Below are positions 1,939-25,404 of a stretch of 25,404 nucleotides of DNA, piece by piece. Position 1 is the stretch's first letter. Each line of letters begins with the position of its first letter. Source of the DNA: a virus (lineage: Duplodnaviria > Caudoviricetes); IMG/VR virus record IMGVR_UViG_3300037458_000153, positions 1-25,404 of that record. One strand, written 5' to 3'. A program made the translations under genes and the position numbers. Below the pieces are notes generated by a model that did not search any database, had not been told where the DNA came from, and was given only the letters and a program-made list of their open reading frames with translations.

Positions 1939-2157
1939 ATGAATAGATGGCTTGAAAGAATTGACTGGATGCTAGAGCAGCATCCCAAAGAATCGCAAAG
2001 AAAGTACCTAGCAAGCGTCCAGAATCAAATTGAACGCTATCCCGCACTTTATCCCACCTTGCCCCAAGAATTGATTTTGGCCCGTCTGTGGCGTCATTAT
2101 AAAAGACTTGAGCGGGAGTCAGTGCTAGGCACCGCTAGCGAGTGCTACGGTAGATGA
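1939..2157 (+). CDS. Hypothetical protein
   Basis: Strong AAGGAGG SD; 72-aa helical-looking sequence. Confidence 0.7.
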   Translation: MNRWLERIDWMLEQHPKESQRKYLASVQNQIERYPALYPTLPQELILARLWRHYKRLERESVLGTASECYGR

Positions 2158-2648: not shown

Positions 2649-2654
2649 TAGATA
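2649..2654 (+). promoter_or_regulatory. TAGATA late-type promoter, leaderless
   Basis: TAGATA-tgggT-ATG(2660); no SD. Confidence 0.65.
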
Positions 2655-6994: not shown

Positions 6995-7000
6995 TATTTA
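6995..7000 (-). promoter_or_regulatory. TAAATA late-type promoter, leaderless
   Basis: TAAATA-cccgT-ATG(6989). Confidence 0.7.
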
Positions 7001-7004
7001 GTGC

Positions 7005-7052
7005 TTGACTCCCGCTTTTGCTATGGTATGGTGATAAGGGGTACTATCACCA
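7005..7052 (+). promoter_or_regulatory. Sigma70-like promoter with overlapping palindrome
   Basis: TTGACT-N16-TATGGT; TGGTGATA-N8-TATCACCA at 7029-7052. Confidence 0.55.
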
Positions 7053-7067
7053 ATAGGAGCTAAAGCT

Positions 7068-8990: not shown

Positions 8991-8996
8991 TAAATA
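8991..8996 (+). promoter_or_regulatory. TAAATA late-type promoter, leaderless
   Basis: TAAATA-cccgT-ATG(9002). Confidence 0.7.
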
Positions 8997-9001
8997 CCCG
9001 T

Positions 9002-10465
9002 ATGCACAATGATGAATCAACAGACTGGCTTGGCTACCCCAAGGACATCAAGCACTACACCCCCCAAGAGGATGTAGAATATACATTCGACAATTTACCT
9101 AGGGATTTGCCCCCAGGTATCTGGGATAATCCCAAGCCCGATGAAATGGATGCCTATGACGAATTCCTTAAGGCATGGAATCAAGGCGAGGAAGAACTAA
9201 AGGAACACTGGCAGTCTACCGCTGAGGAAGGCGATACGATCAGAGCCTTAGCTTACTCCTGCATCACCAAGGGCTGTGATTGCACCAGTGGAACTTATGA
9301 AAAAGCTGACGTAATTGCCACAGCCGATGACGGTATGTGGGATGTACTTCATTACACATTCACCACAGCAGAAGTGTACTTTGGCTCCACATATGTGATT
9401 GCTGCGGGTGACTTGGTGGAATTACCACCAGCAGATGAAGGTGTGGTATCTGCATTAGGTGAAGGCTGGCATCCTAAGTCCTGCTTTACACGGCATGTGG
9501 ATGTAGATGTCCCGCCCAATACGGAAACTAGCACCACCGTCATTAACTATGCCCGCCTAAAGTTCTGGGCAATAGACAATTCTCTGACTGGTGCTAGTGC
9601 TATGATCAGTGGTATTGAGTCTGCAACTTCACCCACTAGCGGCTACTCTGCACAGACTTGGGAACGCACCGAAAGCCGAGTGTATTGGGATGCTGGAGCA
9701 TGGACAGCAGGAAGCATTTACTACAGTCCCAATATTGCTTGCGTCATCCAGGAAATTATTGATGGGCCTAGTTGGCGTAGTGGCGATGATATCCTAATGT
9801 TTCTGGATGGCTATGGGACAAGTCTAAATGAAGCATATGATTACGCTGATGATGCAGCCAAGTCAGCAGACTTAGAAATCTGGTGGGTAATCCACCACAA
9901 CATAAGTATGAGTGGTGGCGTCAAGTGTGATAGCTCAGCCAATGTCGCAGCCATATACACCATACCGATGAGTGGTGGAATAAAGCTAGGCACTGAATCA
10001 TTCTATGGCCTGACTTTCAATCAGCCAGTGAATGTACATGGTAGAGTGTGGCTAAGCGGCTTTGCTGATGTGTCGATATCTGTTCCGATGCGTGGCGGAA
10101 TCAAAGTAAACAGTACTGCTAGAGTCACGAATAATTTCAGCACTATCATACTTGGTGGTGTGAAACTAAGTGGACGTGCAGTGAAGCCTAGTTTCCCAAG
10201 TGGCTTTACCACTCGACATACTATCATTGTTCCCGCTGGTGCCGTTACCGCTGATCTCACAGGATTCTTGCTGGGTATCGTGGCCACCATTGATGCATCG
10301 ATGGTATCTGACAATATTTTTGCCATCACAGATACAAGCAATAATGTATTGCCACATGACTTCCGTAAGTTGAGCGGCAATGAACTCACACTGTATTTCA
10401 AGTGTGATCTATTAGCAGACAGTGACAATGTATTTTACTTGAACTATGGGGATGAGCATGTCTGA
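9002..10465 (+). CDS. Putative adhesin/tail-associated protein with C-terminal DUF2341-like domain
   Basis: Acidic N-terminus, SPNIACVIQEIIDGPSWRSG beta-domain, SGG repeats, ITDTSNNVLPH...FYLNYG ending. Confidence 0.6.
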   Translation: MHNDESTDWLGYPKDIKHYTPQEDVEYTFDNLPRDLPPGIWDNPKPDEMDAYDEFLKAWNQGEEELKEHWQSTAEEGDTIRALAYSCITKGCDCTSGTYEKADVIATADDGMWDVLHYTFTTAEVYFGSTYVIAAGDLVELPPADEGVVSALGEGWHPKSCFTRHVDVDVPPNTETSTTVINYARLKFWAIDNSLTGASAMISGIESATSPTSGYSAQTWERTESRVYWDAGAWTAGSIYYSPNIACVIQEIIDGPSWRSGDDILMFLDGYGTSLNEAYDYADDAAKSADLEIWWVIHHNISMSGGVKCDSSANVAAIYTIPMSGGIKLGTESFYGLTFNQPVNVHGRVWLSGFADVSISVPMRGGIKVNSTARVTNNFSTIILGGVKLSGRAVKPSFPSGFTTRHTIIVPAGAVTADLTGFLLGIVATIDASMVSDNIFAITDTSNNVLPHDFRKLSGNELTLYFKCDLLADSDNVFYLNYGDEHV

Positions 10466-10691
10466 GAAAGAAGCAAGAGAATGGCTGACTAAACGTGTCA
10501 TTAGAATACTAGCCCCGCCTAGCTGGAAACGTGATGAGGATGGCGCACAGATTTATTCTGTGCATTGTGCGATACTTGAGCGAGATGCATATTTGTGTGC
10601 TGTATTGTACGACAACATATTGTTTAGGGTGAAGGATGGGGACTGGCAATTAGCAGATAATAGATGGAGGGTGGTAGATGGCAACGTATAG
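10458..10691 (+). CDS. Hypothetical protein
   Basis: Overlaps both neighbours; likely start MSEKEA. Confidence 0.6.
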   Translation: MSEKEAREWLTKRVIRILAPPSWKRDEDGAQIYSVHCAILERDAYLCAVLYDNILFRVKDGDWQLADNRWRVVDGNV

Positions 10692-11571
10692 CGAATCAAT
10701 GTCCAAGGGTATGAAGCTATCGGGCAAGTCCCGCATTACGATGATCAATTCATCTAGGACTTGCTTCTGTAGTCCACCCGATGTGGACTATGAAGAGGTA
10801 ATGTCTGGCGGCGTATCCCTTAGTGGCTCTGCTGACGTGTGGGACAATAAGATACGTGGCGGTATTTATGCTGGTGGTACAGCCCGAGTCTCAGTAGCTA
10901 CACAGCCATGGGATGAATACGTAATGGTGTTACCATTAGATGAAACAAGTGGCACTGTCTATTACGATCACACCACTAGACATCTAGATGGTACTGGCAC
11001 TGCCACACCCGATATTGGCCCGTTCTGTTCTGGCAGTCAACACTTCGATGGACTAACAGAATACATTACTTTGCCCTACGATAATTACCATGGGCCATTC
11101 ACTGCCACAGCTTGGATCAAGATAGAAGATATCTTCTCTGCTCGCATGTGGTACAGCCGTGGACATACTACCCTTACCGACAAATGGTATTTCACCCAAG
11201 GACATAGTTTCATCAATCACTTAGCTGGACGGGTACAGAACACAGACAGCACTGCCATGGAAGCTTATAGCACTACCACAATGGATGCTGGTGAATGGTA
11301 TCATGTGGCCACATCGTATGATGGCAGTTCATTCAGCCAACATATTGATGGCATTGATGAAGGTAGTTGGGATTCCACTGGTAGTCCTGTGACTGGGACG
11401 AATGGTGGCTATATCGCTAGGTATGAAGGTGGCCAGCCGTATGCTGGGAATGTGCAAGAGCTACGATTGTATGGTGGCATACTATCTACAGCTTGGCTCA
11501 AAGCAGAATATGATAACTGGTGCAATCCAGAGTTTTATCATGTCAGCAAAAAGATGTTACCTACTTGGTGA
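10678..11571 (+). CDS. LamG/concanavalin-A-like domain protein
   Basis: FDGLTEYI, FTATAWIK, GEWYHVATSYDG, GNVQELRLY...LS motifs; GGAGG SD. Confidence 0.85.
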   Translation: MATYSESMSKGMKLSGKSRITMINSSRTCFCSPPDVDYEEVMSGGVSLSGSADVWDNKIRGGIYAGGTARVSVATQPWDEYVMVLPLDETSGTVYYDHTTRHLDGTGTATPDIGPFCSGSQHFDGLTEYITLPYDNYHGPFTATAWIKIEDIFSARMWYSRGHTTLTDKWYFTQGHSFINHLAGRVQNTDSTAMEAYSTTTMDAGEWYHVATSYDGSSFSQHIDGIDEGSWDSTGSPVTGTNGGYIARYEGGQPYAGNVQELRLYGGILSTAWLKAEYDNWCNPEFYHVSKKMLPTW

Positions 11572-12386: not shown

Positions 12387-12991
12387 TATTCCTCCTCTTG
12401 GCAGTTAGCTCCACTTACCCACCAGACACCCTCACCAAAGCTAAGTTGTATAAGACTTGCTGGGGTGTTAGTGGAATCTAAGTCCATGTACCAAGGATTG
12501 TGAATGTCCACGCTTTGCCCTGCTGTATAACTGGTGCCATCAAAATTCTTAGTGGTAGCTGTGGATTTACCTGGGGCTGTGGCTGTACCTTTGGGAATTG
12601 TCCCAGTAAAGGTGGCCATCTTGACGCCTGGAGAATAATCAAACACATAGTATGGATTTGTCTCTGCTCCCCTCATCCACACAATATCATCCGTCAATAC
12701 CCATTTAGATCCAGTGGCTTCTACTGCCCAATATTCTTCATCGCTATGACTACCTGTGGGATAATCCTCATCTGGATCTTCAGTAATGTAGCCATCTTCA
12801 TCTGGCTTGAGTGCTTCCCAACTGTAGTACCCGCTACCGTCACTGCCAGTTATCCTAGCCCAGAAAGCTCTAGGATAATATCCTTTGGCTCTATCGGTAG
12901 GCTCAGGCGCACCTGTATTCATTCGCTCATATTGAATCACTGCTTCAGCAGTACGTTTCTTTTCTTCAGATGTGAATCGGGCAAACGCCAT
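12386..12991 (-). CDS. Putative tail tip protein
   Basis: Position in the tail operon, TAATG coupling. Confidence 0.6.
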   Translation of the reverse strand: MAFARFTSEEKKRTAEAVIQYERMNTGAPEPTDRAKGYYPRAFWARITGSDGSGYYSWEALKPDEDGYITEDPDEDYPTGSHSDEEYWAVEATGSKWVLTDDIVWMRGAETNPYYVFDYSPGVKMATFTGTIPKGTATAPGKSTATTKNFDGTSYTAGQSVDIHNPWYMDLDSTNTPASLIQLSFGEGVWWVSGANCQEEE

Positions 12992-13830
12992 TAGAACACC
13001 GTATAAGGAAGTGGTGGATAGATTTCAAAATAATGGAAGTAAGGTGTTGTCCCACTACCTGGAAGAATACGCTTACCGTTTTGATCCAGTGGCACAGGAT
13101 CATTACAGATTGCTCCATCAATGATGACTGGCTTCAGTTTCCCTGTTGCGGAGTCATACTCACGCATACCCCTAGACTCGATCCACACACCATGACGATA
13201 TGGATTGAAAAGGAATTCAATCGTTGTCTTGTAGTACGTACCAATAGTCTTGTTGTATGCAGATGATACTGAGGCATTCATACAACGCCATGTTCTAGGT
13301 GGCATTCCCTGGAATGGCGTAGCATTCACACTGTTGACGTAGTACATGAAAATACTACCAGCGTCATACCAAAGATTGCGGGATACCTGGAGTACAGCAC
13401 AGCTTACATCCTTTTGAATCTGATTAGCAAAGAGATCCCCAGCCGTATTGCGGATGGGATTGCCATACACGTCATACCACACAGGGCTTTGTGTATTCAC
13501 AAATGAGCGGGAATATTGGGTAGGCTCATTGAGTGGATTGTCTTGCTGTTGCTGTTCACTCAGTGTGCCGTACTGAGCGGTAACGTGCCAGCTATATCCA
13601 TCATCGCCATGGGGTGTGGCTTGAATAGATTTACAGAATGAATAGGAATCTGACTCGGTGCCGTTGTTGTATACATCACCATAGTTCAGCCCAATTGCGG
13701 CACAGGCTGTAGCTGGGCCATCTAGTTTGGAATTCGTTTCCACATACCACACTCGGGTGTATGTGTTCTCATCCTTATTCCATTGTCCCTGGCGATTTTC
13801 AAATAGTTCGGTGCATTTAGTGACTGCCAT
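12991..13830 (-). CDS. Putative distal tail/hub protein
   Basis: Directly follows the tape measure; beta-rich. Confidence 0.6.
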   Translation of the reverse strand: MAVTKCTELFENRQGQWNKDENTYTRVWYVETNSKLDGPATACAAIGLNYGDVYNNGTESDSYSFCKSIQATPHGDDGYSWHVTAQYGTLSEQQQQDNPLNEPTQYSRSFVNTQSPVWYDVYGNPIRNTAGDLFANQIQKDVSCAVLQVSRNLWYDAGSIFMYYVNSVNATPFQGMPPRTWRCMNASVSSAYNKTIGTYYKTTIEFLFNPYRHGVWIESRGMREYDSATGKLKPVIIDGAICNDPVPLDQNGKRILPGSGTTPYFHYFEIYPPLPYTVF

Positions 13831-13836
13831 AAAAGG

Positions 13837-13842
13837 TATTTA
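13837..13842 (-). promoter_or_regulatory. TAAATA late-type promoter, leaderless
   Basis: TAAATA-cctttT-ATG(13830). Confidence 0.7.
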
Positions 13843-13854
13843 TGGTAGCAACAC

Positions 13855-15888
13855 CTAGAATGGTACGTCATCGTATTCGATGCTGGCAAGCTTCTGGAGG
13901 TACGTCACCATATTCTTTTGGTATTCCGTTTGATCCTTGGAATACTTGGCTATGTCCTTGGTATCCTTATCAACGTCCTTTTTGGGCGTCCCATACATGG
14001 TAGACAGATAGTCTGTATAAGCTTCCTGGCTGCCCATGGTGGCGATATCTGCGTATTTGGGCTGTCCACCCATTCCTAAGATGTCCTGTTGAGCTTGCTG
14101 AATACCTCTAGCAATCAAAGCGGGATCAGCCCCAGCCTGTAGCAATTGATCAAGCTCAGCAATCTTTTGCTGATATTGTTCCATGGGATTCCTTGTCTCT
14201 TCCCATAGTTGCTTGGCGGCTTCCCTGTTTTTCTTCTGCTTTTCCAGTTGCTCCATCTGTTTGAATTGAGCTTGAATGGCTTGGTATTCCTGCTGGGTGA
14301 CGCCACCTGACTTATTGAATCCGTCAATGATATTGAAGAAATCCTTGTCACTTTCGCTAAGCCAGAATGATCCTACTTCCTTTTGCTTCTGCTGGATATA
14401 CTTCATTACGCCATCTGCCCGCTTCTTTTCCTCTAGCTCCTTAGTCAATCTGTTGGCTTGTGCTAGATCGGCACCCTTGAGTCCCGATTCCCTCAGTTGC
14501 TTTTGGGCGTCAGTCTCCCCAAAGTGTTCTATGTCGCCACGTAGCTTGGCAATATATTCAGCAGCCTTCTTGGCATCCTCTCGCCACTTCTCCATGGCAT
14601 CGCTGGCGTCCAGCTTAGCAATCAAGTCTTTAGCTTCCTGGAGTTCGGGGCCTGCTAGTCCTCTGCCCAAAGCGTCATATAATCCTTTTTGCCTAGAGGA
14701 CATACCTAACGTATTGTATTCTTCACGTAGACTAGCAAGGTAATCCTTGTTCTTTTCAAGTCCCTTAAGCATTTCCTCGTTGGCGACAGTTATCCCATCA
14801 ATAGAATTGGCCACACCATTTTGGGCAGTAGTTGTTTCATTTGCTATACCCAACATACGTTCCATAGCGTCCGCACCAGCATTCATAGACTCTTCGGCTT
14901 TACCCAACATATCATCAGCAAACGCATCGCCAACACCAGTTATCATTGCAAATATTTTTGCAATGCCACCGATGATGAAGTTGATGATACCCTGCAAAGT
15001 CTTGAAAATTACCATCGTAAACTGGACGACTTTTTGTATGACTATCGCCACTGCTTTCAAAGCTTCGGCTACTACCCACACATAGTCTCCCCAGTCCTTG
15101 GTGTTGGGTAGCAATTCCTGAAGCGTATCTAAGATGATGTCCAAGACGGGTGTAATCGCCACAGTAAATTGACGCCACATACCTGTAACTCTACCTGTGA
15201 CATCTTCCCATTTGTCCTTCATCTCGCCTAAAGCTCTGGCCTGAGTGGTAGAAATGATCAGTCCTAATTCCTCTGCCTTCTTACGGTACTCATCCATGGC
15301 AGCCCCGCCAGCCCTGAACAATGGATCAAGCTTGGCTCCAGTCTCTTTGAATAGTTTCATAAGGATGGCAATACGATCACCTTGATTGCTGATCTTACTG
15401 ATAGCATCAGAAATAGCCTTGAATTGCTGATCACCTGACATGTTGTTTAGGGCTTGGACATCCAGTCCCAGACGTTGGAATACAGCAGAAGCTTCACCAA
15501 TACCATTGGCAGCCTCACTGATAGAACGTTGCATCTTAGCCATAACTGTACCTACCTCTTCAGCAGATACGTCTAGTTTTTCAAAGGCATATTGCAATCC
15601 GATGACGGCTTCCGCAGATACGTTGAATCGCTCAGACAATTTGTTTACTTTGTCAAGCTCATCAATCTGTTGGCCAACATTAGTTATCACAGAACGTAAA
15701 GCCATGAAGCCAGCAGCAGCCACACCAGCGGCAGTAGCTAATGCACCCAGTCCAGGAATGGCAGATGTAATACCGCCCATCATACTAGTGGCGGCACCCT
15801 TTACATCCTTACCAGCTACAGCTAATCCTTTCTTAAGATCAGCCGTCTGGACTTTCATTCCAATTACTACTTGCCCGACTACCGCCAC
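13855..15888 (-). CDS. Tail tape measure protein
   Basis: Long helical Ala/Gly/Lys-rich protein after the chaperones; GGAGG SD before GTG 15888. Confidence 0.9.
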   Translation of the reverse strand: MAVVGQVVIGMKVQTADLKKGLAVAGKDVKGAATSMMGGITSAIPGLGALATAAGVAAAGFMALRSVITNVGQQIDELDKVNKLSERFNVSAEAVIGLQYAFEKLDVSAEEVGTVMAKMQRSISEAANGIGEASAVFQRLGLDVQALNNMSGDQQFKAISDAISKISNQGDRIAILMKLFKETGAKLDPLFRAGGAAMDEYRKKAEELGLIISTTQARALGEMKDKWEDVTGRVTGMWRQFTVAITPVLDIILDTLQELLPNTKDWGDYVWVVAEALKAVAIVIQKVVQFTMVIFKTLQGIINFIIGGIAKIFAMITGVGDAFADDMLGKAEESMNAGADAMERMLGIANETTTAQNGVANSIDGITVANEEMLKGLEKNKDYLASLREEYNTLGMSSRQKGLYDALGRGLAGPELQEAKDLIAKLDASDAMEKWREDAKKAAEYIAKLRGDIEHFGETDAQKQLRESGLKGADLAQANRLTKELEEKKRADGVMKYIQQKQKEVGSFWLSESDKDFFNIIDGFNKSGGVTQQEYQAIQAQFKQMEQLEKQKKNREAAKQLWEETRNPMEQYQQKIAELDQLLQAGADPALIARGIQQAQQDILGMGGQPKYADIATMGSQEAYTDYLSTMYGTPKKDVDKDTKDIAKYSKDQTEYQKNMVTYLQKLASIEYDDVPF

Positions 15889-15889
15889 A

Positions 15890-16186
15890 TTACCTCCTGG
15901 CTGCCATAGCACTTAGCTTGGCTCTGTTCAACGCCACCTGATCTACCTGCTCTTCATATTGCGGAATAAAGTCTTTCGGTGCCAGTTTGCCACCATGTAC
16001 ATTGGCAAGTGTGGCACACTGGATACCTGTCTGTAGCCAAGGATCTGGTATAGGATTGATCCTAAAATAAGCAATCCACTCAGATAATTCCATGGAGTCC
16101 AAGGCTTCTACCTCCCGCAAACTTTTCCCCAATAGTATTGCTAATCTAAATAGCAACTGCCTTATTGGGGAGCTTCGGAGTTTTTT
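15890..16186 (-). CDS. Tail assembly chaperone, -1 frame extension (gpT-like)
   Basis: Frame is open from the slippery site: KLRSSPIRQLLFRLAILLGKS...ELSEWIAYF. Confidence 0.8.
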   Translation of the reverse strand, partial: KKLRSSPIRQLLFRLAILLGKSLREVEALDSMELSEWIAYFRINPIPDPWLQTGIQCATLANVHGGKLAPKDFIPQYEEQVDQVALNRAKLSAMAARR

Positions 16187-16512
16187 TCTAGTTCATCCAC
16201 ATCGCTCGGTAGTATTCCATTGAGCTTGGCGGCAGTCGTAAAAATGTCCGACAATACTTTGCCGCTCTTCAAGTTCAATAAGCCAACGTCTTCGGGAGTA
16301 AACAATAAGTTCCCCTGTTCGTCGCAGATTGTGAGAGCGGCTAAGCTTGCTCGAATATCATTACGTGTCTTGCCCTGCTGCTGGATTTCCCAGGCAGTTC
16401 TATCGCCAGCCGTCATGGTGCGCACATACACATGCCCGCCCCACTCTGGAGTTTCTACCTTCTCTTGCTTCAGATCCAAACAAGATAGAATTGCGTCTTT
16501 AGTTAGTTGCAT
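16162..16512 (-). CDS. Tail assembly chaperone (gpG-like)
   Basis: PEWGGHVYVRTMT, ICDEQGNLLF, ends ELEKN; AGGA SD before ATG 16512. Confidence 0.88.
   Translation of the reverse strand: MQLTKDAILSCLDLKQEKVETPEWGGHVYVRTMTAGDRTAWEIQQQGKTRNDIRASLAALTICDEQGNLLFTPEDVGLLNLKSGKVLSDIFTTAAKLNGILPSDVDELEKNSEAPQ
16180..16186 (-). other. Programmed -1 frameshift slippery site
   Basis: A AAA AAC heptamer links the two chaperone frames. Confidence 0.85.
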
Positions 16513-16513
16513 A

Positions 16514-16927
16514 TTAAGTCCTTGAAATACCAGTTGACAACTTGATTGTTCCGCTAGCCTTAACGTTTTGTTCAATTTCCATACCGGACAAAGCCCATTT
16601 AGTTAAGAATCCAGAGAACGCCCAAGTTTCCTCAGCAGTGCTATCAGCATCAGCCAACTTGAGTCTCCAGCTTTTTTCGACTGGACTAGTAGTCATGGTG
16701 TTGATATCTGCGTGATCCGTCTTGTTGTACCAGCAATCAAAAGATATTTCGCCATTGTCAGCTAGTTTGCTAACACGGAACGTCTTGGTGGTGCTGGTGA
16801 GATCAGTGGTATCAACGCTACCCGTTGTCCACTCTGGGCCTGAGATTGAAACGGCTGCTGCTACTGTTTCCCAAGCTGTGCCGTCTTGATATTGTAGTCG
16901 AGTTCCCTCGCCAGTGTATACTGCCAT
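16514..16927 (-). CDS. Major tail tube protein
   Basis: ISGPEWTTGSVDTTDL, DNGEISF, WAFSGFLT; expected gene order. Confidence 0.88.
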   Translation of the reverse strand: MAVYTGEGTRLQYQDGTAWETVAAAVSISGPEWTTGSVDTTDLTSTTKTFRVSKLADNGEISFDCWYNKTDHADINTMTTSPVEKSWRLKLADADSTAEETWAFSGFLTKWALSGMEIEQNVKASGTIKLSTGISRT

Positions 16928-16935
16928 AAATTATT

Positions 16936-16965
16936 CCTCATAGAAAAGAGACTATGAGGTATTTA
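16936..16965 (-). promoter_or_regulatory. TAAATA promoter with SD-sequestering hairpin
   Basis: TAAATA then CCTCATAG-N8-CTATGAGG. Confidence 0.75.
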
Positions 16966-16968
16966 TGA

Positions 16969-17376
16969 CTATGACTGCCGAAATGATAACGTGTATTCAT
17001 GAGTCCTGGCATATACCCAGTCTTCACTACCATCATCTAAAGCTTCCGCATCGTCATAGACATTTTGCAAGGTGATGGAGCCAACAGTGTAACTACCCAT
17101 AGTTCCCCTGTATCCTTGCATCACGCCCCGTAGTGCTTCCGCTATGTCGAAAGCCTCCTGCATATCCTGAGATAAACAGGCAAATTTTAGGGTGGCTCTG
17201 CTATGCCCAGCCTTGCCCGTAAGGTGGTGATCAGATTCCTCTGCTACCTGGGTGACAACGATGGCTGGGATGACTGGATCTTGCGGTAAATGTAGGGGGT
17301 AAATCCTAGTCGATACCAAAGTGGTGACGGGTACTTGAGCCGAAAGATAAGAATAGACTGCACTATAAACGTTCAT
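16969..17376 (-). CDS. Tail terminator/completion protein (DUF3168-like)
   Basis: LVSTRIYPLHLPQ...PAIV motif; gene order. Confidence 0.85.
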   Translation of the reverse strand: MNVYSAVYSYLSAQVPVTTLVSTRIYPLHLPQDPVIPAIVVTQVAEESDHHLTGKAGHSRATLKFACLSQDMQEAFDIAEALRGVMQGYRGTMGSYTVGSITLQNVYDDAEALDDGSEDWVYARTHEYTLSFRQS

Positions 17377-17852
17377 ACACCCCTCACCGCTTCATCTAAA
17401 AATTGCACAATGTTATATTCCGCTTCGTCCCCAGCTAACTTAGCCTTTTGCTCAAACGCCTTACGCATGTATTGTTTCCCCTCTACCCTGGGGCTGCCAG
17501 TTTGATTCTTATTCTGGCTCTTCTTGGGATATCTGCTGTGGCCATATTCCTGTAAGCTTCCATGAAAGAAAGATCTTTTGAATGGTACAGCTTTACCACC
17601 GTGGAATATATTGATCTGGATATGTTGTCGGGATCGTTTGCCAGCCCTAATCCTAATGTTCTTTTTGAGTTCGCCACTCTCTTTGGGAACTAGTTGCATG
17701 GCCAGTTGTTGCATCGGACGTAAAGCCCTACGCATCGTACTACGCATTATCTTCTTGGCTACTCTAGGCTCTAGGGCCTGTAGCCTTTCATCTATCTCTT
17801 TCTGGCCAGTAACTATGATCTTGACTGATTTGGCTATTGTTGCTCCAGACAC
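17373..17852 (-). CDS. HK97 gp10-like tail completion protein (start uncertain)
   Basis: VPKESGELKKNI, LQEYGH, YMRKAFE motifs. Confidence 0.85.
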   Translation of the reverse strand: MSGATIAKSVKIIVTGQKEIDERLQALEPRVAKKIMRSTMRRALRPMQQLAMQLVPKESGELKKNIRIRAGKRSRQHIQINIFHGGKAVPFKRSFFHGSLQEYGHSRYPKKSQNKNQTGSPRVEGKQYMRKAFEQKAKLAGDEAEYNIVQFLDEAVRGV

Positions 17853-18151
17853 TTACACAGTGTTTCTCTATCTTGGGCGTCTTTGTTCAGTACAGAAACT
17901 ATATTGAACACTCTGCCTTTCCACGTAATCCGATGCTTGGTGGTGAGTTCGCTCGCATATCTGAGCGTAATGAGATGACTGGCTGTCTCTCTGATAGCTC
18001 TAGCTTTCATAGACTCAGTGTCATCTAGCGGTAGGACATCTGCCCATCTGGAATATAATGCCGTCCAAGTTTGTTCCACTTGGCCAATGCTATCCCTTGT
18101 CTCGGTAGCTTGTTCAATCGTTACCCTTGTCCACAAATCACCTGATCTCAT
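17834..18151 (-). CDS. Head closure protein (SPP1 gp16-like)
   Basis: MRSGDL.TRVTI, RWADV, ITLRY, RITWKGRVFNI. Confidence 0.9.
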   Translation of the reverse strand: MRSGDLWTRVTIEQATETRDSIGQVEQTWTALYSRWADVLPLDDTESMKARAIRETASHLITLRYASELTTKHRITWKGRVFNIVSVLNKDAQDRETLCKCLEQQ

Positions 18152-18711
18152 ATACACTCCACTACAGTTAGTTGATCAATTAGACGTTGCACGCCAAAGG
18201 GAACTTCCGCAATGATTGTCCCGCTAATTGTTGCTTCCCTATTTTCATACCATTGGGATACCAATAGTTTGACGGCATGAGTTAAGGTAGCGGGAGGCGT
18301 AGTATATCCACAGGTAAAGCGGATTGTTATAGCATCATATCTTGGATAGACAGATGGCCAGTAATCTACTGGGCAGATAAATCCCGGCAGATTGCTAGCG
18401 GTAACTACCCTGTAATCAGTGTCTTCCACCATCGTAATTTCTACGTTGGACGTATCGTAATACTTGATGCTGTCAACTGATTGAAGCGGAGACTTCGGTA
18501 AAAACAAGCGATTGCTGGAGAAACAGGCTATTACACTTTGGTAAGTGTAGGCTCTGAAGCATTGAGAAGTCTCCGCTTCGATAAGTTGAATGGCAGCTTC
18601 CCTGAGTCCTTCTAGGTAGGAATCATCTTCCTCAATGTCAATGCGGCAATGATCCTTAAGGGCTGCTAGTGATACGATCTCGTCAGCGGATTTTGATATG
18701 GTAGTAAGCAT
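18148..18711 (-). CDS. Head-tail connector (HK97 gp6-like)
   Basis: VSLAALKDHCRID, AVKLLVSQWYENRE. Confidence 0.92.
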   Translation of the reverse strand: MLTTISKSADEIVSLAALKDHCRIDIEEDDSYLEGLREAAIQLIEAETSQCFRAYTYQSVIACFSSNRLFLPKSPLQSVDSIKYYDTSNVEITMVEDTDYRVVTASNLPGFICPVDYWPSVYPRYDAITIRFTCGYTTPPATLTHAVKLLVSQWYENREATISGTIIAEVPFGVQRLIDQLTVVECI

Positions 18712-18716
18712 AAATC

Positions 18717-18722
18717 TATTTA
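18717..18722 (-). promoter_or_regulatory. TAAATA late-type promoter, leaderless
   Basis: TAAATA-gattT-ATG(18711), directly after a terminator-like hairpin. Confidence 0.7.
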
Positions 18723-18724
18723 GC

Positions 18725-18755
18725 GAAGAAGCCCACCGTTTTACGGGCGGGCTTC
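18725..18755 (-). terminator. Terminator-like hairpin after the capsid gene
   Basis: GAAGCCCGCCCGT/ACGGTGGGCTTC; weak U-tract. Confidence 0.65.
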
Positions 18756-18794
18756 ATCTGTAACATGTGGAGCGTGTTACCTAATTCTTATGTA

Positions 18795-20048
18795 TTAGTG
18801 TAACAAGTGTTTAACCGCTGAGGTATTCACAAGTTTGCAGTCACCTCGATAGACTCCCATAAAGCCAACAGCATACTGATCCATGTATCGTTCCTTCAGC
18901 GTGAATAGCTGGACGGATGCGACATTACGGATAATGTGCTTGCTGAAATCACCAAACAGAATGGACTTAGCACTGTTAGCAACATTGGCCATAGCGTTGT
19001 TGATGACAATCGGCTTGCCTAGCAACATGCCTGGGCTTGCACTGGTAAGATCGTTTCTCCACAAAGGACGATAAGTGGAGTCCACTAGAGATTCTAGACT
19101 CTTGACAGTCAGATCGTTCATCATCCACACAGCAGAACTTCTGTAGGCGGGATCAACACTGTGGTAGAGATCCAGCAAATCAGAGTAAGAAACGCCACTG
19201 GTGCTATCGGCATCGGCACCCTTAACACTGTCAGTGACTACACCCGCTGGCTTGCTCGTTCCATCGCCAACTGTGAAATCAGTATTTGTCTTGCGGGCAA
19301 TTCGTTCGCCTAAGCAAGAGCCAACTAGATCACTAACGTTGATGGCGGAATCCTGGAGCAATTCGTAGGATACTGGGAAAGCACTGGTGCGGTAGGTAAA
19401 GCAGCCAATCTGCTTGATACCAAACGCAATATCAACGGCTGTATTAGCAACGATTTCGCTAACAATGGCGGCTTCATTTCCAGTGTCATCTACAGTTGGC
19501 CAATTGATGGTGCCACCAGTAGCAGTGGAAATATTGTTTGACACTTCACGGATTCCACCGAATTGCTTCAATGCTCTATCAAAGCCAGCTACCATACCTT
19601 CTTCTACGGTATAGCCACCAGCAGCATCAGTACCGACAACTTGTCCGTTATTGGTACGTAGCACTAGGGTGAGATCGGGGCGGTGTGTATCCACTTGGCA
19701 ACGCTCAGCAGCTTCTTCCCATTCCTTTTTGCAAAGGTGGCCAACACCAGCACTACGCATGGCCCAAGCTCGGAAAGCATTGTTTACGTCGTGTTGGGTA
19801 ATAGCTCTGCGGCTATAATTTCTTTCGGATACTTGCGGGACGCTCAGGGTAAGCGTCTGGACTTTTTCAATTCTTTCTTGCGTCTTGATTTGATTATCAA
19901 GATCATTCTTGCGGGATTCCAAAGAGTCCCATCTTTCAAGCTCTTCACTGGAGAAATTTCTATTCTCAGTTTTGACTACATTGGCCATGCCCTGCATATC
20001 AGCAACGACACCACCCAGTTGTTCTTTAAGATTTTTGAGTTCGTACAT
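18795..20048 (-). CDS. HK97-fold major capsid protein
   Basis: Coiled-coil delta domain, GGYTV, VSYELLQDS, GDGTSKPAG, WMMN, LLGKPI, ILFGDFS. Confidence 0.96.
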   Translation of the reverse strand: MYELKNLKEQLGGVVADMQGMANVVKTENRNFSSEELERWDSLESRKNDLDNQIKTQERIEKVQTLTLSVPQVSERNYSRRAITQHDVNNAFRAWAMRSAGVGHLCKKEWEEAAERCQVDTHRPDLTLVLRTNNGQVVGTDAAGGYTVEEGMVAGFDRALKQFGGIREVSNNISTATGGTINWPTVDDTGNEAAIVSEIVANTAVDIAFGIKQIGCFTYRTSAFPVSYELLQDSAINVSDLVGSCLGERIARKTNTDFTVGDGTSKPAGVVTDSVKGADADSTSGVSYSDLLDLYHSVDPAYRSSAVWMMNDLTVKSLESLVDSTYRPLWRNDLTSASPGMLLGKPIVINNAMANVANSAKSILFGDFSKHIIRNVASVQLFTLKERYMDQYAVGFMGVYRGDCKLVNTSAVKHLLH

Positions 20049-20104
20049 TTTATCACCATATTAGATAAGTTTCTTGCCGCTGCTCTGGGGCTTGGCTTAT
20101 GGTG

Positions 20105-20110
20105 TATCTA
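20105..20110 (-). promoter_or_regulatory. TAGATA late-type promoter for the capsid gene
   Basis: TAGATA-caccaT|A after a terminator; ~50-nt leader with GGTGA SD. Confidence 0.6.
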
Positions 20111-20122
20111 TGTTCCTTAAAT

Positions 20123-20219
20123 AAAAAAATGCTTAGGGCAACACACCCTAAGCATTTTTCAAGAAAAAGAGTTTTCGCAGAGAACTTAGTCCTACACTCG
20201 GTAAGACAAAAATTCTACT
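20123..20219 (-). ncRNA. Candidate ~95-nt small RNA
   Basis: TAGATA at 20226-20231, long 5' hairpin, AATGCTTAGGG/CCCTAAGCATT terminator. Confidence 0.5.
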
Positions 20220-20240
20220 ATGCAATATCTACACCTATTA

Positions 20241-20300
20241 AACAGAAACGCCCAGCAGAGTCGAGGCTGCTGGGCGTGACCACAGATCTTGAGTAAAACT
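20241..20300 (-). ncRNA. Candidate ~60-nt small RNA
   Basis: TAGATA at 20306-20311, short unpaired 5' part, ACGCCCAGCAG/CTGCTGGGCGT terminator. Confidence 0.5.
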
Positions 20301-20323
20301 ATTGTTATCTATGCAACACCATT

Positions 20324-20367
20324 AAAAAAAATACGCCCGCTGGAATGGCTAAAAAACAGCGGGCGTA
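20324..20367 (-). terminator. Rho-independent terminator after the protease gene
   Basis: TACGCCCGCTG/CAGCGGGCGTA plus U8. Confidence 0.85.
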
Positions 20368-20394
20368 AACTCAAAGCAATGGGACTTTCCAAAG

Positions 20395-20985
20395 TTATTT
20401 ATACTTCTCTAATCTTTTTTCCGTCTCGATTTTTAGTCGTTCCTGCTCAAGCCAAGTTGCATAATTGTCTTCCATTTCCTTGGATCGTACAAATGCAGTA
20501 GATGCTTGGTAGGCTGGCTTACTCACTGGCCCAACGTCTCTTAACTGTTTGACTGATCGTACCCAACAGATGTGCTTGTCACCCTCATTGGTGAATTCCG
20601 TCTTCCCTGGCTGAAACGCAAAGCTGCTTCCTTTACACAATCCTTTACTAATCTTAGTCCTGACTTTCATATGATCGGGATCGTCTTGGGCGAAAGGTAC
20701 TGAATAACGTAAGCCTTTGCTGTCGGTGCGGAGTTGCAATGTGTTACTTTCTACATCACCCAGAATGTAATCTTCACTGTGATTGAATCTGGCTTCTACG
20801 TTGGATCGTTCGGCTAGGACTTGATTGAATGCTTGGGAATCTATTCGTTCGTATAAGTTGCCGCCTAAGTGATACTCTGTACCTGGATCGGCTGAGTTGT
20901 AAAATACACTGGCATACCCACTGATGTAATGTTGTCCATTACGTTCCTCTATCTGAGTGGTATCCGTCGTCATCCTTATTTCCAT
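20395..20985 (-). CDS. HK97-family prohead protease
   Basis: ISGYASVF, FNH, LRTDSKGL, GSSFAF, DVGPVSKPAY. Confidence 0.95.
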   Translation of the reverse strand: MEIRMTTDTTQIEERNGQHYISGYASVFYNSADPGTEYHLGGNLYERIDSQAFNQVLAERSNVEARFNHSEDYILGDVESNTLQLRTDSKGLRYSVPFAQDDPDHMKVRTKISKGLCKGSSFAFQPGKTEFTNEGDKHICWVRSVKQLRDVGPVSKPAYQASTAFVRSKEMEDNYATWLEQERLKIETEKRLEKYK

Positions 20986-22517
20986 AATTCCTCCACGATT
21001 TGTTCAGTGGTGTATCTAGCCAGTACAGCTTGGTGCTGCTCTGGTAATGTCGCAGATAATTCGTGTTGCATATTGTCTAACATTCGCTCAGCAATTTCTT
21101 TGCCTTTTTTGAATGCCGACATGTTCTCAATGACTATATCCCGATGCTTTGTTAAGTCTGTCTGCCCTTCACTGACTGCCTTGCTTATCCGCTTAAGCAA
21201 TCGGGATACAGTCTGTTCCGTTAGTTTGCGGGCTACCTCTTCCGCTTCCTCCTCCACTGGCTCCTCTGCTGGAGCCTGGGGTAGCATCTGCGGCATCGGC
21301 TGCGGCTCTGGCTCCTCACCCTCTATCACAATATTGCTGGGGTGCTGCCAAGTTTCATCCTCACTCTTGTCCGTAGTCATGTTGAGTTTCTGTCGCATCT
21401 CTTGCCAACTGATCATACCGTTTTGGAATTGATATCCTAGAAGTTCAATCTCTGTCTTAATGTCAGTAGAGATGAGCTTCTTACGTTCAAACTCGATATA
21501 GTGGGATTCCTCTTCCTTTTCCTGCTCCGTCAGTAACTTAGTTTGACATTCCTCTTCCCAATTTATCAAATGATGTTCAATACTGTCAGCAAGGAAATTC
21601 TTGTCATCCTGTTCCAAGCTTCCATAGCTGGTATTCTGTGCTGATCCTATCTTGGAATGGCTGCTACCAAATAGATTGGCTGAGCTTATAAGATCGAATT
21701 CCCTGGACTGATTGAATTGTCCTTCATCATTATTGATGGCCACAGTAGTTGTCTTGGTGCCAGTGGGAACAAATGCTGGCTTGAATGTATTTTCTACGTT
21801 GGCGTGGGATCGATACCAAGCATTGCGGAATTCCGTTACCTTCTCCAGTCCTTTGATCGTTGGCGGTAATTCCACAATTAGTTTTGGCTGGGCATTGTTG
21901 GCGAAGTAGTAAGCCGCATGACGTTGGAGGCTCAAGCCCAAGCCCAAAGCATCACGTCCCAGTTGCAATGTGTTATAGCCCTCGACACCATCGCCAATAT
22001 TCTGGATGTGTAGACAGTCCTCTGTGGCAAGGGTAAATGGCTTGTCATTTAGATTGGTGCGGATTAGCGGTAAGCCAGTGGAGGTATCAATATAGGTGGC
22101 TGTTGGATCTAGTATCAACAACTCGACTGGCAAGGCATAAGCGTCACGAACGATATATGCCCACGCATTGCCATAGAGTAGGCAATACAATTGCATAGTC
22201 CTGCGAAATACAAATGGTGTGTACAGTGGTGAAGGACTACGCCTCAGTAATTTCTGGGCGGGATGCTGATTGTCCTTTTCCCTGCTGCCATTGTTGCCAT
22301 ACCTCATCACGTTCAGTGGTAATATGGCCACCTTGGTACTGATGAGTTCGCAAGCTCTGCGGACTGCGGGATTGCCTAGGACTGATTGTAGACTCACCCT
22401 AACACCGCTTGAGCTAGGTGGGCCACTGGTGAGCATTTCATACGTTGCGGGATCATTTAGATTAACACTGGGATTATCTAAGATGGATCGTTTGAATATT
22501 TTGTTCCAGATTGACAT
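20976..22517 (-). CDS. HK97-family portal protein
   Basis: AVRRACELIS, LLYGNAWAYIVRD, CLHI; start moved to 22517 (MSIWNKIFKR), removing the TerL overlap. Confidence 0.95.
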   Translation of the reverse strand: MSIWNKIFKRSILDNPSVNLNDPATYEMLTSGPPSSSGVRVSLQSVLGNPAVRRACELISTKVAILPLNVMRYGNNGSREKDNQHPAQKLLRRSPSPLYTPFVFRRTMQLYCLLYGNAWAYIVRDAYALPVELLILDPTATYIDTSTGLPLIRTNLNDKPFTLATEDCLHIQNIGDGVEGYNTLQLGRDALGLGLSLQRHAAYYFANNAQPKLIVELPPTIKGLEKVTEFRNAWYRSHANVENTFKPAFVPTGTKTTTVAINNDEGQFNQSREFDLISSANLFGSSHSKIGSAQNTSYGSLEQDDKNFLADSIEHHLINWEEECQTKLLTEQEKEEESHYIEFERKKLISTDIKTEIELLGYQFQNGMISWQEMRQKLNMTTDKSEDETWQHPSNIVIEGEEPEPQPMPQMLPQAPAEEPVEEEAEEVARKLTEQTVSRLLKRISKAVSEGQTDLTKHRDIVIENMSAFKKGKEIAERMLDNMQHELSATLPEQHQAVLARYTTEQIVEELWK

Positions 22518-22522
22518 AACGG

Positions 22523-22528
22523 TATTTA
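22523..22528 (-). promoter_or_regulatory. TAAATA late-type promoter, leaderless
   Basis: TAAATA-ccgtT-ATG(22517). Confidence 0.7.
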
Positions 22529-22536
22529 GTAGCTGT

Positions 22537-24180
22537 TCACACAAATACCATAGGCCCGTCCCAGGTATCATCCTCATATGCCAGCCACCCGCCCATTGCG
22601 ATGGCACTGGCCACAATCCCATCTATCCGCCCATTGCTCTTGAGCTTGTCCAGCATTATTTGATCCTCATTGTTGCTGCGGCAAGTGGCCACACTGACAC
22701 ACCAATCTAAGATCGGATGCCCAGCATGACGGATAGTATGATCCAGCATCTTGCGTTCTAGATAGGCGGTACTGGGTGACATGCTGGCAAAACTCTGCTT
22801 CACTTCCAGAAATTCACAATCCATTTCTTCTTGGAGTTTCATAATTGTCTCGGTAGCACCATAAGGATCATAGCGGAATTCCAAGATATTGAACTTCTGG
22901 GCGTCTTCTAAGATGGCTGCCCTGATGGCAGTAGGATCAATAATGTCTCCCTCAGTTAGTTTGATGTGGCCTTGCTGCTCCCATACAAGGTACGGCACAT
23001 GATCCGTTTTGCTCTTGATAGTCGCCAGTTGCTTCGGGCTGAAGAATCTGGGCAACAGATATATGTTCGGCTTGCCCTCATCATCCTCTTTCTTTACTGC
23101 CACCACATAACAAGTCAGATCATTACGCCTGGACATATCCAAGCCAATCATAGCGGGATATCCATGTAAGTCCTCTTCAGTAAATAGTCCTCTACAGAAT
23201 CGCCACTTGGTAATATCCAGCCAAGCTTGACAATGCCCTACTGGCATATTGAGTAGGAACGTTTTGAAACGGATGGCATCTAGTGGACTGTTCTTTGCCT
23301 TCTCATATTCTTGGCGGTAGTAGTTCATGGTGACAGTACCAGTGGGTAAATTCTCAGTTACCATTGCTGGCTGAGCTTTGATCCACTGTTCTTCTGTCGT
23401 CCACTCCTCATCTTCCCTGAGTCCATACACCATTCCTAGTGTGTCTAATCGCTCATCCTTGCCATCCATAATATCCAGTGCCAGTTGATACAGCCTGTAG
23501 CCTAGGTGTTCATGTTCATATTGGCAGTGTGAGATACTCCAAAGCTGTGGATTTTCTCTAGTCATACCTGCATTACACAGCCTGTCATAGATCACTTGGG
23601 CATGTGTTCCATTCCATTCCCATGTTTCATCCAGTGCTATCCAGTTGGCATTGAGTCCTGATTTACCTTCTGGTGTGCTGGATAATACACGAAATTTACT
23701 GTGCCGTTTCTCATCCTGTACCAAGGATATGTCTCTGCGAATCTTAAGGAATCGTAGGGACGGGCAATTGTCTATGTAATCACAGGACTGATTGAATAGG
23801 ATTTGAGCTTGTTCGACAGTACTGGCGATACAATAACACTCACTACCTGGATGCTGGAGCAGATGGTATAGCCCGAGTCCACTCAACAAAGAAGTCTTCC
23901 CTGACTTCTTTGGAGTGAACACATACACATGGCGGAAGCGTAAGCTACCATCTGGATTGCGGTAGCCATATGCTCTTAAGATCAGTTGTTTCTGCCATGG
24001 CATTAGTGACAGTGGCTTGCCCGTCCATGGGTGCTTACTCTGTATGCAGAAAGTACTGAGGAAATGGCAAATCTTATAAGGTAATTCGTAATCAATGTAA
24101 TGGCCTAGCTCGTCTGCTATCTTGTCTGCTTTCGTCAGACTGTGTTCCAGTCCTTTGAAATACATCTGGTATTCGTTCAT
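22537..24180 (-). CDS. terL: Terminase large subunit
   Basis: LMPWQ, Walker A PKKSGKT, Walker B IALDE, nuclease GLDMS..DLT, YDPY, RIDGIVA. Confidence 0.96.
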   Translation of the reverse strand: MNEYQMYFKGLEHSLTKADKIADELGHYIDYELPYKICHFLSTFCIQSKHPWTGKPLSLMPWQKQLILRAYGYRNPDGSLRFRHVYVFTPKKSGKTSLLSGLGLYHLLQHPGSECYCIASTVEQAQILFNQSCDYIDNCPSLRFLKIRRDISLVQDEKRHSKFRVLSSTPEGKSGLNANWIALDETWEWNGTHAQVIYDRLCNAGMTRENPQLWSISHCQYEHEHLGYRLYQLALDIMDGKDERLDTLGMVYGLREDEEWTTEEQWIKAQPAMVTENLPTGTVTMNYYRQEYEKAKNSPLDAIRFKTFLLNMPVGHCQAWLDITKWRFCRGLFTEEDLHGYPAMIGLDMSRRNDLTCYVVAVKKEDDEGKPNIYLLPRFFSPKQLATIKSKTDHVPYLVWEQQGHIKLTEGDIIDPTAIRAAILEDAQKFNILEFRYDPYGATETIMKLQEEMDCEFLEVKQSFASMSPSTAYLERKMLDHTIRHAGHPILDWCVSVATCRSNNEDQIMLDKLKSNGRIDGIVASAIAMGGWLAYEDDTWDGPMVFV

Positions 24181-24458
24181 TAGCCCTCTAGATGTGGAAA
24201 CAAATCGTGCAAGTCTGACGTTGGTGCGGCACCTTTATTCTTAGTGCTAGTAAGTCCTAGCAGTGTGGAATACTTACTGATCAGTTGAGTAGCTTTGATC
24301 TTGAGTGATACGCTACACTCGGGCAATAGTTCCTCTGCTTCATCGTACATGCTATATGCATCCGCCAGTCTCATCAGTAGTTCCTTGCTGTTCGGATTCA
24401 ACGCTAACATCGGGGCTATCTGATCGTAGTACGTCTGGGCTTTCTTGCTGAGTTTCAT
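24180..24458 (-). CDS. Probable terminase small subunit
   Basis: Directly upstream of and coupled to terL; helical, with an LGLT motif like P27-family TerS. Confidence 0.7.
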   Translation of the reverse strand: MKLSKKAQTYYDQIAPMLALNPNSKELLMRLADAYSMYDEAEELLPECSVSLKIKATQLISKYSTLLGLTSTKNKGAAPTSDLHDLFPHLEG

Positions 24459-24675
24459 CTGGCTCCTTTTTATTCTTCATCTCGTTGGCTTCGTATTCCC
24501 AATACATCTTAAGCAATGCTCTGCAAAACTCACTGTTGCTGACATGTTGACGTTGAGCACTTAGCTTAAGCTTTTCGTACTCTTCATCACTCGTGACAAA
24601 ACTTACTGAGTGTGTTCTATCTGGCTCTAAATATTTCCCTAACTCTTTGAATGGTGTAGTAATTTTCCTAGACAT
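24352..24675 (-). CDS. Ribbon-helix-helix DNA-binding protein
   Basis: SVSFVTSDEEYEKLKLSAQRQHVSNSEFCRALL; AGGAGG SD; TATATA-aagcT|A element upstream. Confidence 0.7.
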   Translation of the reverse strand: MSRKITTPFKELGKYLEPDRTHSVSFVTSDEEYEKLKLSAQRQHVSNSEFCRALLKMYWEYEANEMKNKKEPDETQQESPDVLRSDSPDVSVESEQQGTTDETGGCI

Positions 24676-24756
24676 GTAAAATCCTCCTAGCTTTATATAG
24701 TAATAACTGAGAGAAAATATCCTGTTATGCAGTTTTTCACCCTGGAGGGCTGTCAA

Positions 24757-24892
24757 AAAATCTGCACAGGCCCGTTGCGGCTTTCATCCTTTTAGGGAAG
24801 CTCAAAAAATGGCCCCCATTCCCCCCAGGATCGTTTGTGTGGCGTCCTAATCGCTCAGTAGCACAATGTGACGCATTATATTCATGTGCGTT
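24757..24892. other. Candidate cos/packaging region
   Basis: Non-coding gap between HNH and the terminase genes, with a GGGGGGAATGGGG tract on the minus strand; usual cos position in HK97-like phages. Confidence 0.45.
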
Positions 24893-25204
24893 CTATTGGC
24901 CTTGTGCAGTCTTTATATTGTGGCAGGAATAACATAATGATTGTAGATTCCTAGGCTCGAACATCTTGTCCATGTCACCACGATGAGGACTGATATGATC
25001 AACACACTGTGCTGCCCTAGTGATGCCCTTAGCTAAGCAGTGTACACATAGTGGATGATTGGCTAGATGTATATCCCTCAATGCCTTCCATGCTCTAGTG
25101 TACCCACGCTGATGGTAGTTGGGCCTATTGGTGAGCTTAGGGCAAGAGCAACGTTTAGGTGAGCGTTGACATACTGGACAGATTCTAGATGGTGCGTATG
25201 GCAT
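24893..25204 (-). CDS. Terminase-associated HNH endonuclease (HK97 gp74-like)
   Basis: RGYTRAW, PLCVHC, VDHISPH, NLQSLCYSCHNIKT. Confidence 0.95.
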   Translation of the reverse strand: MPYAPSRICPVCQRSPKRCSCPKLTNRPNYHQRGYTRAWKALRDIHLANHPLCVHCLAKGITRAAQCVDHISPHRGDMDKMFEPRNLQSLCYSCHNIKTAQGQ

Positions 25205-25211
25205 ACCAATA

Positions 25212-25283
25212 TAAATGCCGCTAGGGATAACGAATCCCTAGCGGCACTTAGTGAAAGATAATAGAAAGGTAAAGAGTTGTACC
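25212..25283 (-). ncRNA. Candidate ~70-nt small RNA or HNH leader
   Basis: TACATA at 25289-25294, pyrimidine-rich stretch, TGCCGCTAGGGAT/ATCCCTAGCGGCA hairpin. Confidence 0.4.
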
Positions 25284-25288
25284 GTCGT

Positions 25289-25404
25289 TATGTAGTACGT
25301 TAAATAAAAAAGCCGCCAAGAAGTGGGAAAACTTGGCGGCTAACGATTGGTAAGAGAGTTTAAGTGAATTGCACGTCACTTGCAATTATATAGTCAATCT
25401 GATT
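25289..25404. repeat. Terminal direct repeat, copy 2
   Basis: Identical to 16-131. Confidence 0.95.

Follow-up and report, generated by a model that had tools for sequence, protein, structure and literature searches.

A hairpin overlapping a predicted late-type promoter is likely to gate translation of the tail tube gene in small Planctomycetota prophages

The window and the leader of its tail tube gene

The window, that is, the whole stretch of 25,404 nucleotides analysed here, is identical with the full virus record, and its genes comprise those for HNH, the terminases, portal, protease, HK97-type capsid, adaptor, closure, neck, terminator, tail tube, chaperones and tape measure, together with a serine recombinase gene. 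No replication genes were recognised by PHROG and Pfam in the window, which is possibly incomplete, and an Rfam scan of it gave zero matches. The two copies of a near-identical terminal repeat of 124 nt (8-131 on the plus strand and 25281-25404) are spaced by 25,273, and a second contig carrying one window protein is 25,372 long, which equals 25,273 + 99; this suggests a circular unit of 25,273 bp, contrary to which stand the IMG/VR label 'linear' and a CheckV completeness of 40%.

Several further features lie elsewhere in the window. A low-GC stretch of ~700 nt without a convincing gene (1223-1938) is possibly an origin or attachment region, and large proteins with ~20-residue SGG-K-SG repeats, which are likely fibre or baseplate parts of the virion, are encoded at 4286-6706 and 9002-11571 on the plus strand, opposite to the tail module. 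The adaptor gene holds an inverted repeat (18473-18589) of 24 nt, 92% complementary, with its arms 69 nt apart. Another inverted repeat, TGGTGATA-N8-TATCACCA, is found at 7027-7053 between divergent genes at 6989 (minus strand) and 7068 (plus strand), and one of its arms is similar to the sequence ahead of the capsid ATG.

The gene for the major tail (tube) protein (137 aa; phrog_158, E 3e-9) occupies 16514-16927 on the minus strand, the strand of all features of its leader, and the preceding tail terminator gene (16969-17376, minus strand; phrog_347) ends 3 nt ahead of a TAAATA hexamer (16960-16965). This hexamer is the core of a predicted late-type promoter box, CATAAATA (16960-16967), which agrees with the T4 consensus TATAAATA at seven of eight positions. 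The transcription start is predicted at the 5th-7th base past the hexamer (16953-16955), where T4 geometry gives 16954 and the spacer distribution of the lineage gives 16955-16953, and the outcome is identical for all three positions. By sequence and folding, the 5′ arm of an inner stem, CCTCATAG (16952-16959), is a predicted anti-SD arm lying mostly upstream of the predicted +1, and is followed by an 8-nt loop (16944-16951) and the 3′ arm CTATGAGG (16936-16943). GAGGA, an SD-like sequence (16935-16939) that presumably serves the ribosome, is placed 7 nt ahead of the ATG at 16927, and an out-of-frame ATG (16941-16939, minus strand) is seen within the inner 3′ arm, directly ahead of the SD. TAAATA, and then stem-N8-stem with the SD in the 3′ arm, are all present on the minus strand exactly as the earlier note claimed, and the A at 16953, its proposed +1, is the 7th base past the hexamer, a start at which would take away six of the eight arm bases, as it also stated. 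Beyond that note, folding predicts an outer helix of nine pairs, the 5′ arm of which (16961-16969) takes in promoter bases and the final base of the upstream stop codon, while its 3′ arm (16923-16931) lies over the start codon, burying the AUG.

In all, 17 pairs are predicted in the read-through hairpin, and 14 of them would be lost with a start at the predicted +1. For the read-through RNA of 101 nt, the predicted fold has -28.4 kcal/mol (z -4.2; equalled by none of 200 shuffles), and the short RNAs beginning at 16955, 16954 or 16953 have z of -0.2 to -0.5. On truncation, the predicted cost of unfolding the ribosome site in this leader falls from 15.8 to 6.8 kcal/mol. Among the 44 TANATA sites of the window the tube leader has the lowest 50-nt folding energy. 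Perfect stems of at least 8 bp occur at ~12 places on the minus strand, and the TAAATA count in the window is at chance (16 vs 16.13 expected); neither the hexamer nor an 8-bp stem alone is rare, but their combination is.

A close relative in the sequencing data (runs X5 and X7) has no difference listed across 16953-16977, and in X5 the interval 16922-17010 shows 4 differences, of which two are unlisted, vs 42/234 in the coding region; the alignment to this relative stops at 16922, adjoining the end of the outer stem. RNA contigs of two studies, possibly of one campaign, end at 16926 and 16930, where DNA contigs continue. These ends are a weak hint of a start near the hairpin, as a start and a stop are indistinguishable from contigs, and the missing RNA contig cover over 16931-17130 carries no evidential weight.

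The TANATA box in the window and its relatives

Relatives were gathered via terminase, portal and capsid queries, and comprise viral contigs, prophage L021 in a Pirellulaceae MAG, beside which Rfam identifies one tRNA, and prophages in G174, G397 and G371 of the same phylum. Those in host genomes are low-GC prophages of Planctomycetota, the spans of which, judged by the GC drop, are ~21 kb in G001 and ~26 kb in G174; a Rep gene is carried by the G001 prophage and a primase-polymerase by that of G371. A tube-gene search for close loci found none in viral contigs, and metagenome contigs gave two weak partial matches, which were unused. A quickly built portal tree has 63 rows, out of 104 found before near-copies were dropped, and in it 17 of the 18 motif-labelled rows fall within one set of 18 (SH-aLRT 99), the remaining member of which has one motif start. 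Of the 45 rows outside that set, 42 are without motif starts and L182 has four; the box is thus in use in two or more head lineages. L182 and L216 (G371 C37, G397 C32) represent a second head-gene lineage with TANATA leaderless starts, and the closeness of the L216 tube gene to that of L178 suggests mosaicism.

In the available text on T4 late promoters, an 8-bp box lies about one turn upstream of +1, its first base at -13 and the box extending from -13 to -6, with no conservation at -35 and with an a/gC variant in Aeh1 (PMC2988020). In the window, an ATG follows 7 of the 16 TAAATA copies at a spacer of 5-6, and none at 0-4 or 7-11; these seven cases are five real genes and two short frames (binomial P 2e-4 for 5/15). 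Six real genes of the window start 5-6 nt past TA(A/G)ATA. TAAATA is located 5 nt ahead of the ATG of the portal gene (22523-22528, minus strand), which is predicted leaderless and has TAGATA in the same place in L002, of the head-tail adaptor gene (18717-18722, minus strand), of a 104-aa gene (6995-7000, minus strand) and of a 487-aa gene (8991-8996, plus strand), and 6 nt ahead of that of a 279-aa gene following the tape measure gene (13837-13842, minus strand); TAGATA (2649-2654, plus strand) is 5 nt ahead of the ATG at 2660 of a 266-aa gene. Among 188 TARATA in 12 loci, an ATG stands at spacers 4, 5 and 6 in 17, 24 and 7 cases, vs 3.4 expected. No -35 signal was found at the 36 gene-start TARATA sites; directly before the box the base context favours A (24/36) and C (21/36), and T tracts at -15 to -18, with T in 25-26 of the 36 at -15 and -17, are read by us as tails of upstream terminators. 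Prophages found later broaden the box from TARATA to TANATA, the third base being variable, so that the lineage is described by a -10-only box, (A/C)TANATA, 4-6 nt ahead of the ATG in many virion genes. By T4 arithmetic a 5-nt spacer makes the A of the ATG the +1, and therefore leaderless mRNAs would result. The earlier reading of TAAATA as a promoter is supported by this constant distance from the start codons.

No excess of sigma-70-type promoters was found in 12500-25404 (16 vs 22.8). For the protease, head closure, neck, terminator, chaperone, tape measure and terminase genes of the window there is no separate box, and their expression has to rely on polycistronic RNA; silencing of read-through therefore could not be general. 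Two arrangements in relatives fit genes with their own promoters: in L016 (6807-12288) the head and tail modules have opposite orientations, and in L021 (17981-18223) an opposite-strand gene is inserted directly ahead of the tube promoter.

The factor that reads the box was sought in the elements and their hosts. PF04542 had no match in the window, no sigma families appeared in scans of the non-structural ORFs of lineage elements, and gp33, sliding clamp and replisome families were absent from the PHROG and Pfam scans of the 32 window ORFs. T4 gp55, compared with 5,020 six-frame segments from 20 motif-using loci and T4, gave a best E of 0.77 outside T4. The gp55 family profile phrog_234 gave 17 weak matches in 401 genomes of the phylum and 0/14 in control genomes (L184-L193); most of these matches lie in frames of 560-650 aa and, from that size, are probably RpoD-like. 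The profile phrog_12791 was uninformative, matching nothing anywhere, controls included.

In host genomes the motif clusters in the prophage, without enrichment ahead of host genes. G001 has 45 cases of TARATA-N4-6-ATG vs 38 in the control, nine of them in the prophage, and plausible starts make up 3/36 of the rest; in G174, 8 of the 16 matches to CTANATA-N4-5-ATG are in the prophage, with 15 control matches genome-wide. In a set of 226 upstream regions, taken from 400 kb of the G174 genome, there are 5 copies of TANATA in sense and 9 in antisense, and 14 of the reversed control. A host housekeeping promoter was rejected, as the box is not broadly used in G001 or G174. The sources that remain are a late sigma of a helper phage, one of ~30 host sigmas (30 sigma region-2 matches occur in G001) or a small phage protein. 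A candidate regulator is the 72-aa protein encoded at 1939-2157 (plus strand), predicted as three helices (pLDDT 89), which is 39% identical to its counterpart in the G001 prophage (L023:3357-3575) and has no fold match at E <= 0.001. Of two further candidate activators, the 178-aa protein at 686-1222 yields a poor alpha/beta model (pLDDT 36), and the 154-aa protein at 145-609 has no Atlas match. No 16S tail match, which would give the anti-SD, was found in G001.

Tube and capsid leaders across the lineage

The tube proteins of the lineage are 23-41% identical to that of the window, and TANATA lies 4-35 nt ahead of the ATG in 13/13 distinct tube genes. In the outgroup, TARATA was found within 70 nt of the tube gene in 0/23 rows, a count that concerns the TARATA form alone (TAAATA and TAGATA) and that is in itself lowered by the GC-rich state of many outgroup loci. 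The tube genes of L011 and L012 are leaderless and the other 11 are leadered. A strong stem is predicted over the SD in 9/11 leadered genes (window, L009, L013, L016, L021, L034, L174, L178 and L216), in all nine of which TANATA is within or directly before the 5′ arm; the two others, L008 and L032, lack a real stem.

Leader statistics were computed on ten leadered genes, including both weak ones (L008, L032) and without L216. The duplex of a leader's own two arms averages -11.4 vs -5.9 kcal/mol for cross-arm duplexes, and none of 200,000 permutations of the ten leaders was as low. The predicted energy for opening the ribosome site falls on truncation by a median of 8.6 kcal/mol vs -0.1 in the outgroup (P 2.6e-4), for which 15 of 23 leaders were used after 8 near-duplicates were dropped; against this trend, the outgroup leader L042 falls by 9.9 kcal/mol. 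In the leaderless L011 the AUG is predicted to be buried in read-through RNA too (13.8 to 0.4), and the short form of L216 is able to refold over part of the SD.

At the variable promoter base the pair is reversed between L178 and L216, from G-C to C-G, a compensated change that is one event in two sequences and alone is not significant (275/500 shuffles). When six leaders were aligned by MAFFT, RNAalifold found 0 pairs, as the arms are not alignable in columns, and per-leader folding and the duplex permutation test were used in its place. The comparison of leaders indicates that the stem is conserved with changed sequence, and that the feature is real and conserved.

The extension of the layout to many capsid genes is weaker, its figures coming from lineage leaders alone. 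The major capsid leader of the window (20049-20110, minus strand) has TAGATA (20110-20105) and a CACCATA pairing with TATGGTG near the start codon, a weak stem no better than shuffles (z -0.07). Fifteen capsid leaders were taken, of which 14 have TANATA, L075 being without the box, and 11/14 drop by at least 4 kcal/mol; L002 drops by 2.4, L009 and L012 show no drop, and the capsid start of L016 is uncertain. Repeats of (G)CC(C)AAG, often in small hairpin loops, recur in the capsid leaders of the window, L002, L008, L009, L011, L012, L013, L021, L032 and L034, and are possibly a protein-binding RNA element; Rfam had no match to the capsid leaders of the five sources scanned.

A probable promoter-gated switch, its alternatives and its meaning

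Based on these comparisons, we consider that the tube leader is probably best explained as a promoter-gated translation switch, a reading well supported by the comparison of sequences. Promoter activity, the +1, use of the SD, the effect on translation and its purpose are all deduced from the sequence, spacing and arm complementarity that are observed. In RNA that reads through from upstream, the ribosome site of the tube gene and its start codon would be closed off by the 17-pair hairpin, and RNA begun 5-7 nt past TAAATA would have lost most of the 5′ arm and could be translated; the tube gene is thus likely to be translated only from RNA begun at the overlapping box. Many virion genes, with the box 4-6 nt from the ATG, would yield leaderless mRNAs, while the high-copy proteins, tail tube and often major capsid, would keep an SD for strong translation, and this SD would be locked by a stem whose 5′ arm is the promoter with its first bases. 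Consequently, tube and capsid proteins would be made only while the TANATA-reading factor is active, and not from leaky or prophage-state read-through. The adaptor box at 18717-18722 is the likely source of the read-through RNA over the tube leader. Since such read-through would come from the same promoter class, the early/late timing of T4 need not apply, and, given also the genes without a box, the lock may therefore guard against a prophage-state leak or set dosage rather than timing.

Other roles of the hairpin have to be weighed against this switch. It may terminate transcription, forming in read-through RNA only, or in antisense, and so end the upstream operon but spare RNA from the overlapping promoter; the geometry is equally compatible with this, the stem comes directly after the stop codon, and a scan rates the inner stem terminator-like on both strands, being also the only item listed by the terminator scan from the tail terminator gene to the hexamer. 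However, the sense tail past the full stem holds 0-3 T in 8 bases in 12/12 leaders (2-4 in antisense), terminator-like sites ahead of other lineage boxes do carry T tracts, and the stems are mostly AU-rich and always paired with the SD and start region, so that we regard termination as unlikely. About as little weight, or slightly less, is given to an RNA processing or stability element, wherein a nuclease cut frees the ribosome site or the upstream 3′ end is shielded and TAAATA is incidental here. Stems of 10-17 pairs, as predicted here, could be substrates of double-strand nucleases, and the RNA contig ends at 16926-16930 may reflect a cut, or a stop of reverse transcription, no less than a start; but processing leaves unexplained both the position of TANATA at the 5′ arm, at transcription-start spacing, in all nine strong cases, and the leaderless start of the tube gene in two relatives.

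The inverted repeat might instead act as DNA, either as the operator of a dimeric regulator, for instance a ribbon-helix-helix-like protein, or as a promoter-opening cruciform. The predicted +1 falls on the repeat, one protein of the window is NikA-like (ribbon-helix-helix-like), by a weak match at E 2.4e-4 that is under the Pfam cut-off, and the strand asymmetry of folding is mixed, the sense fold being more stable than the antisense in 5/8 strong stems. Yet the arms are wholly different among relatives, the loops vary from 5 to ~15 nt, G-U pairs occur in 5/8 strong stems and the repeat is found at no other promoter of the window, which makes a role as DNA quite improbable. As for pure coincidence, an AT-rich hexamer having fallen on one of the various 8-bp stems, with which the expected hexamer count and the ~12 such stems on the minus strand would agree, the position kept in 13/13 relatives, the stems in 9/11 and the arm-specific complementarity of the sequences have largely refuted it, leaving it a very slight probability.

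The precedent given in the earlier note, that of T4 e, soc, 49 and I-TevI, is correct: in the available text, the SD and/or AUG of these genes are buried in long transcripts, and the DNA for the 5′ strand contains a TATAAATA-type box, the transcripts from which are without that strand (PMC3014915). Similarly, the SD and AUG are here in a predicted helix of the long RNA, the predicted promoter box is within the DNA of the 5′ arm, and structure is kept with changed sequence in relatives (9/11 leadered). Whereas the T4 control concerns lysozyme or nuclease genes of lytic myoviruses, the present one would concern tube and capsid genes of 21-26-kb HK97-type siphovirus-like prophages of Planctomycetota; the box here is TANATA, most other box-bearing genes start leaderless, and the nearest upstream candidate promoter, the adaptor TAAATA, is of the same class, with no early/late contrast shown. 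The predicted promoter resembles the gp55/gp33/gp45 late promoters of T4, as far as the available text describes them, in its single box about one helical turn from +1 and no -35, and the A/C bases ahead of the lineage box match the Aeh1 late consensus (PMC2988020). Unlike in the gp55 system, searches of the window and of 19 other motif-using loci gave no homologue of gp55 or of sigma factors, and the third base varies freely. The layout, promoter and stem parts of the proposed T4-style switch are supported, and the lineage is not T4-like: the switch would work like the T4 promoter/hairpin switch without being, as far as tested, a member of the gp55 system.

A second comparison is with satellites. 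The Streptomyces satellite phages MulchRoom and MiniFlayer are described, in the text available, as having their own capsids and no replication genes (PMC10690885). Like these and the capsid-forming PICIs, the present elements are small and of low GC and encode a head and packaging functions of their own, with few or no recognised replication genes and an integrase in some (PMC10690885); unlike them, they encode a full siphovirus tail, and some members have a Rep or primase gene. The word 'promoter' is absent from the main text of the satellite paper, as available (PMC10690885). Tentatively, and with more doubt than confidence, these elements may be helper-dependent prophages of Planctomycetota which encode a whole virion without the means to transcribe it, and in which leaderless starts and SD-locking hairpins on tube and capsid genes would restrict translation to RNA begun by the gp55-like late factor of a larger phage. 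If so, the promoter would be a helper sensor common to at least two head-gene lineages.

In the titles and abstract openings of the literature covered, a coverage outside which subscription papers mostly fall, no account of such a system was found, which is not proof that it is unpublished. If the switch is true, a control layout of T4-like lytic phages would extend to small temperate siphovirus-like elements of Planctomycetota, and would there be placed on the two most abundant virion proteins. TANATA would be a phage-specific promoter with mostly leaderless starts, which helps to fix start codons and to find such prophages. The question thereby raised is which factor reads such a T4-late-like promoter when no sigma gene is detectable in the elements themselves, and the G174 prophage, residing in a single-contig genome, makes this question testable.
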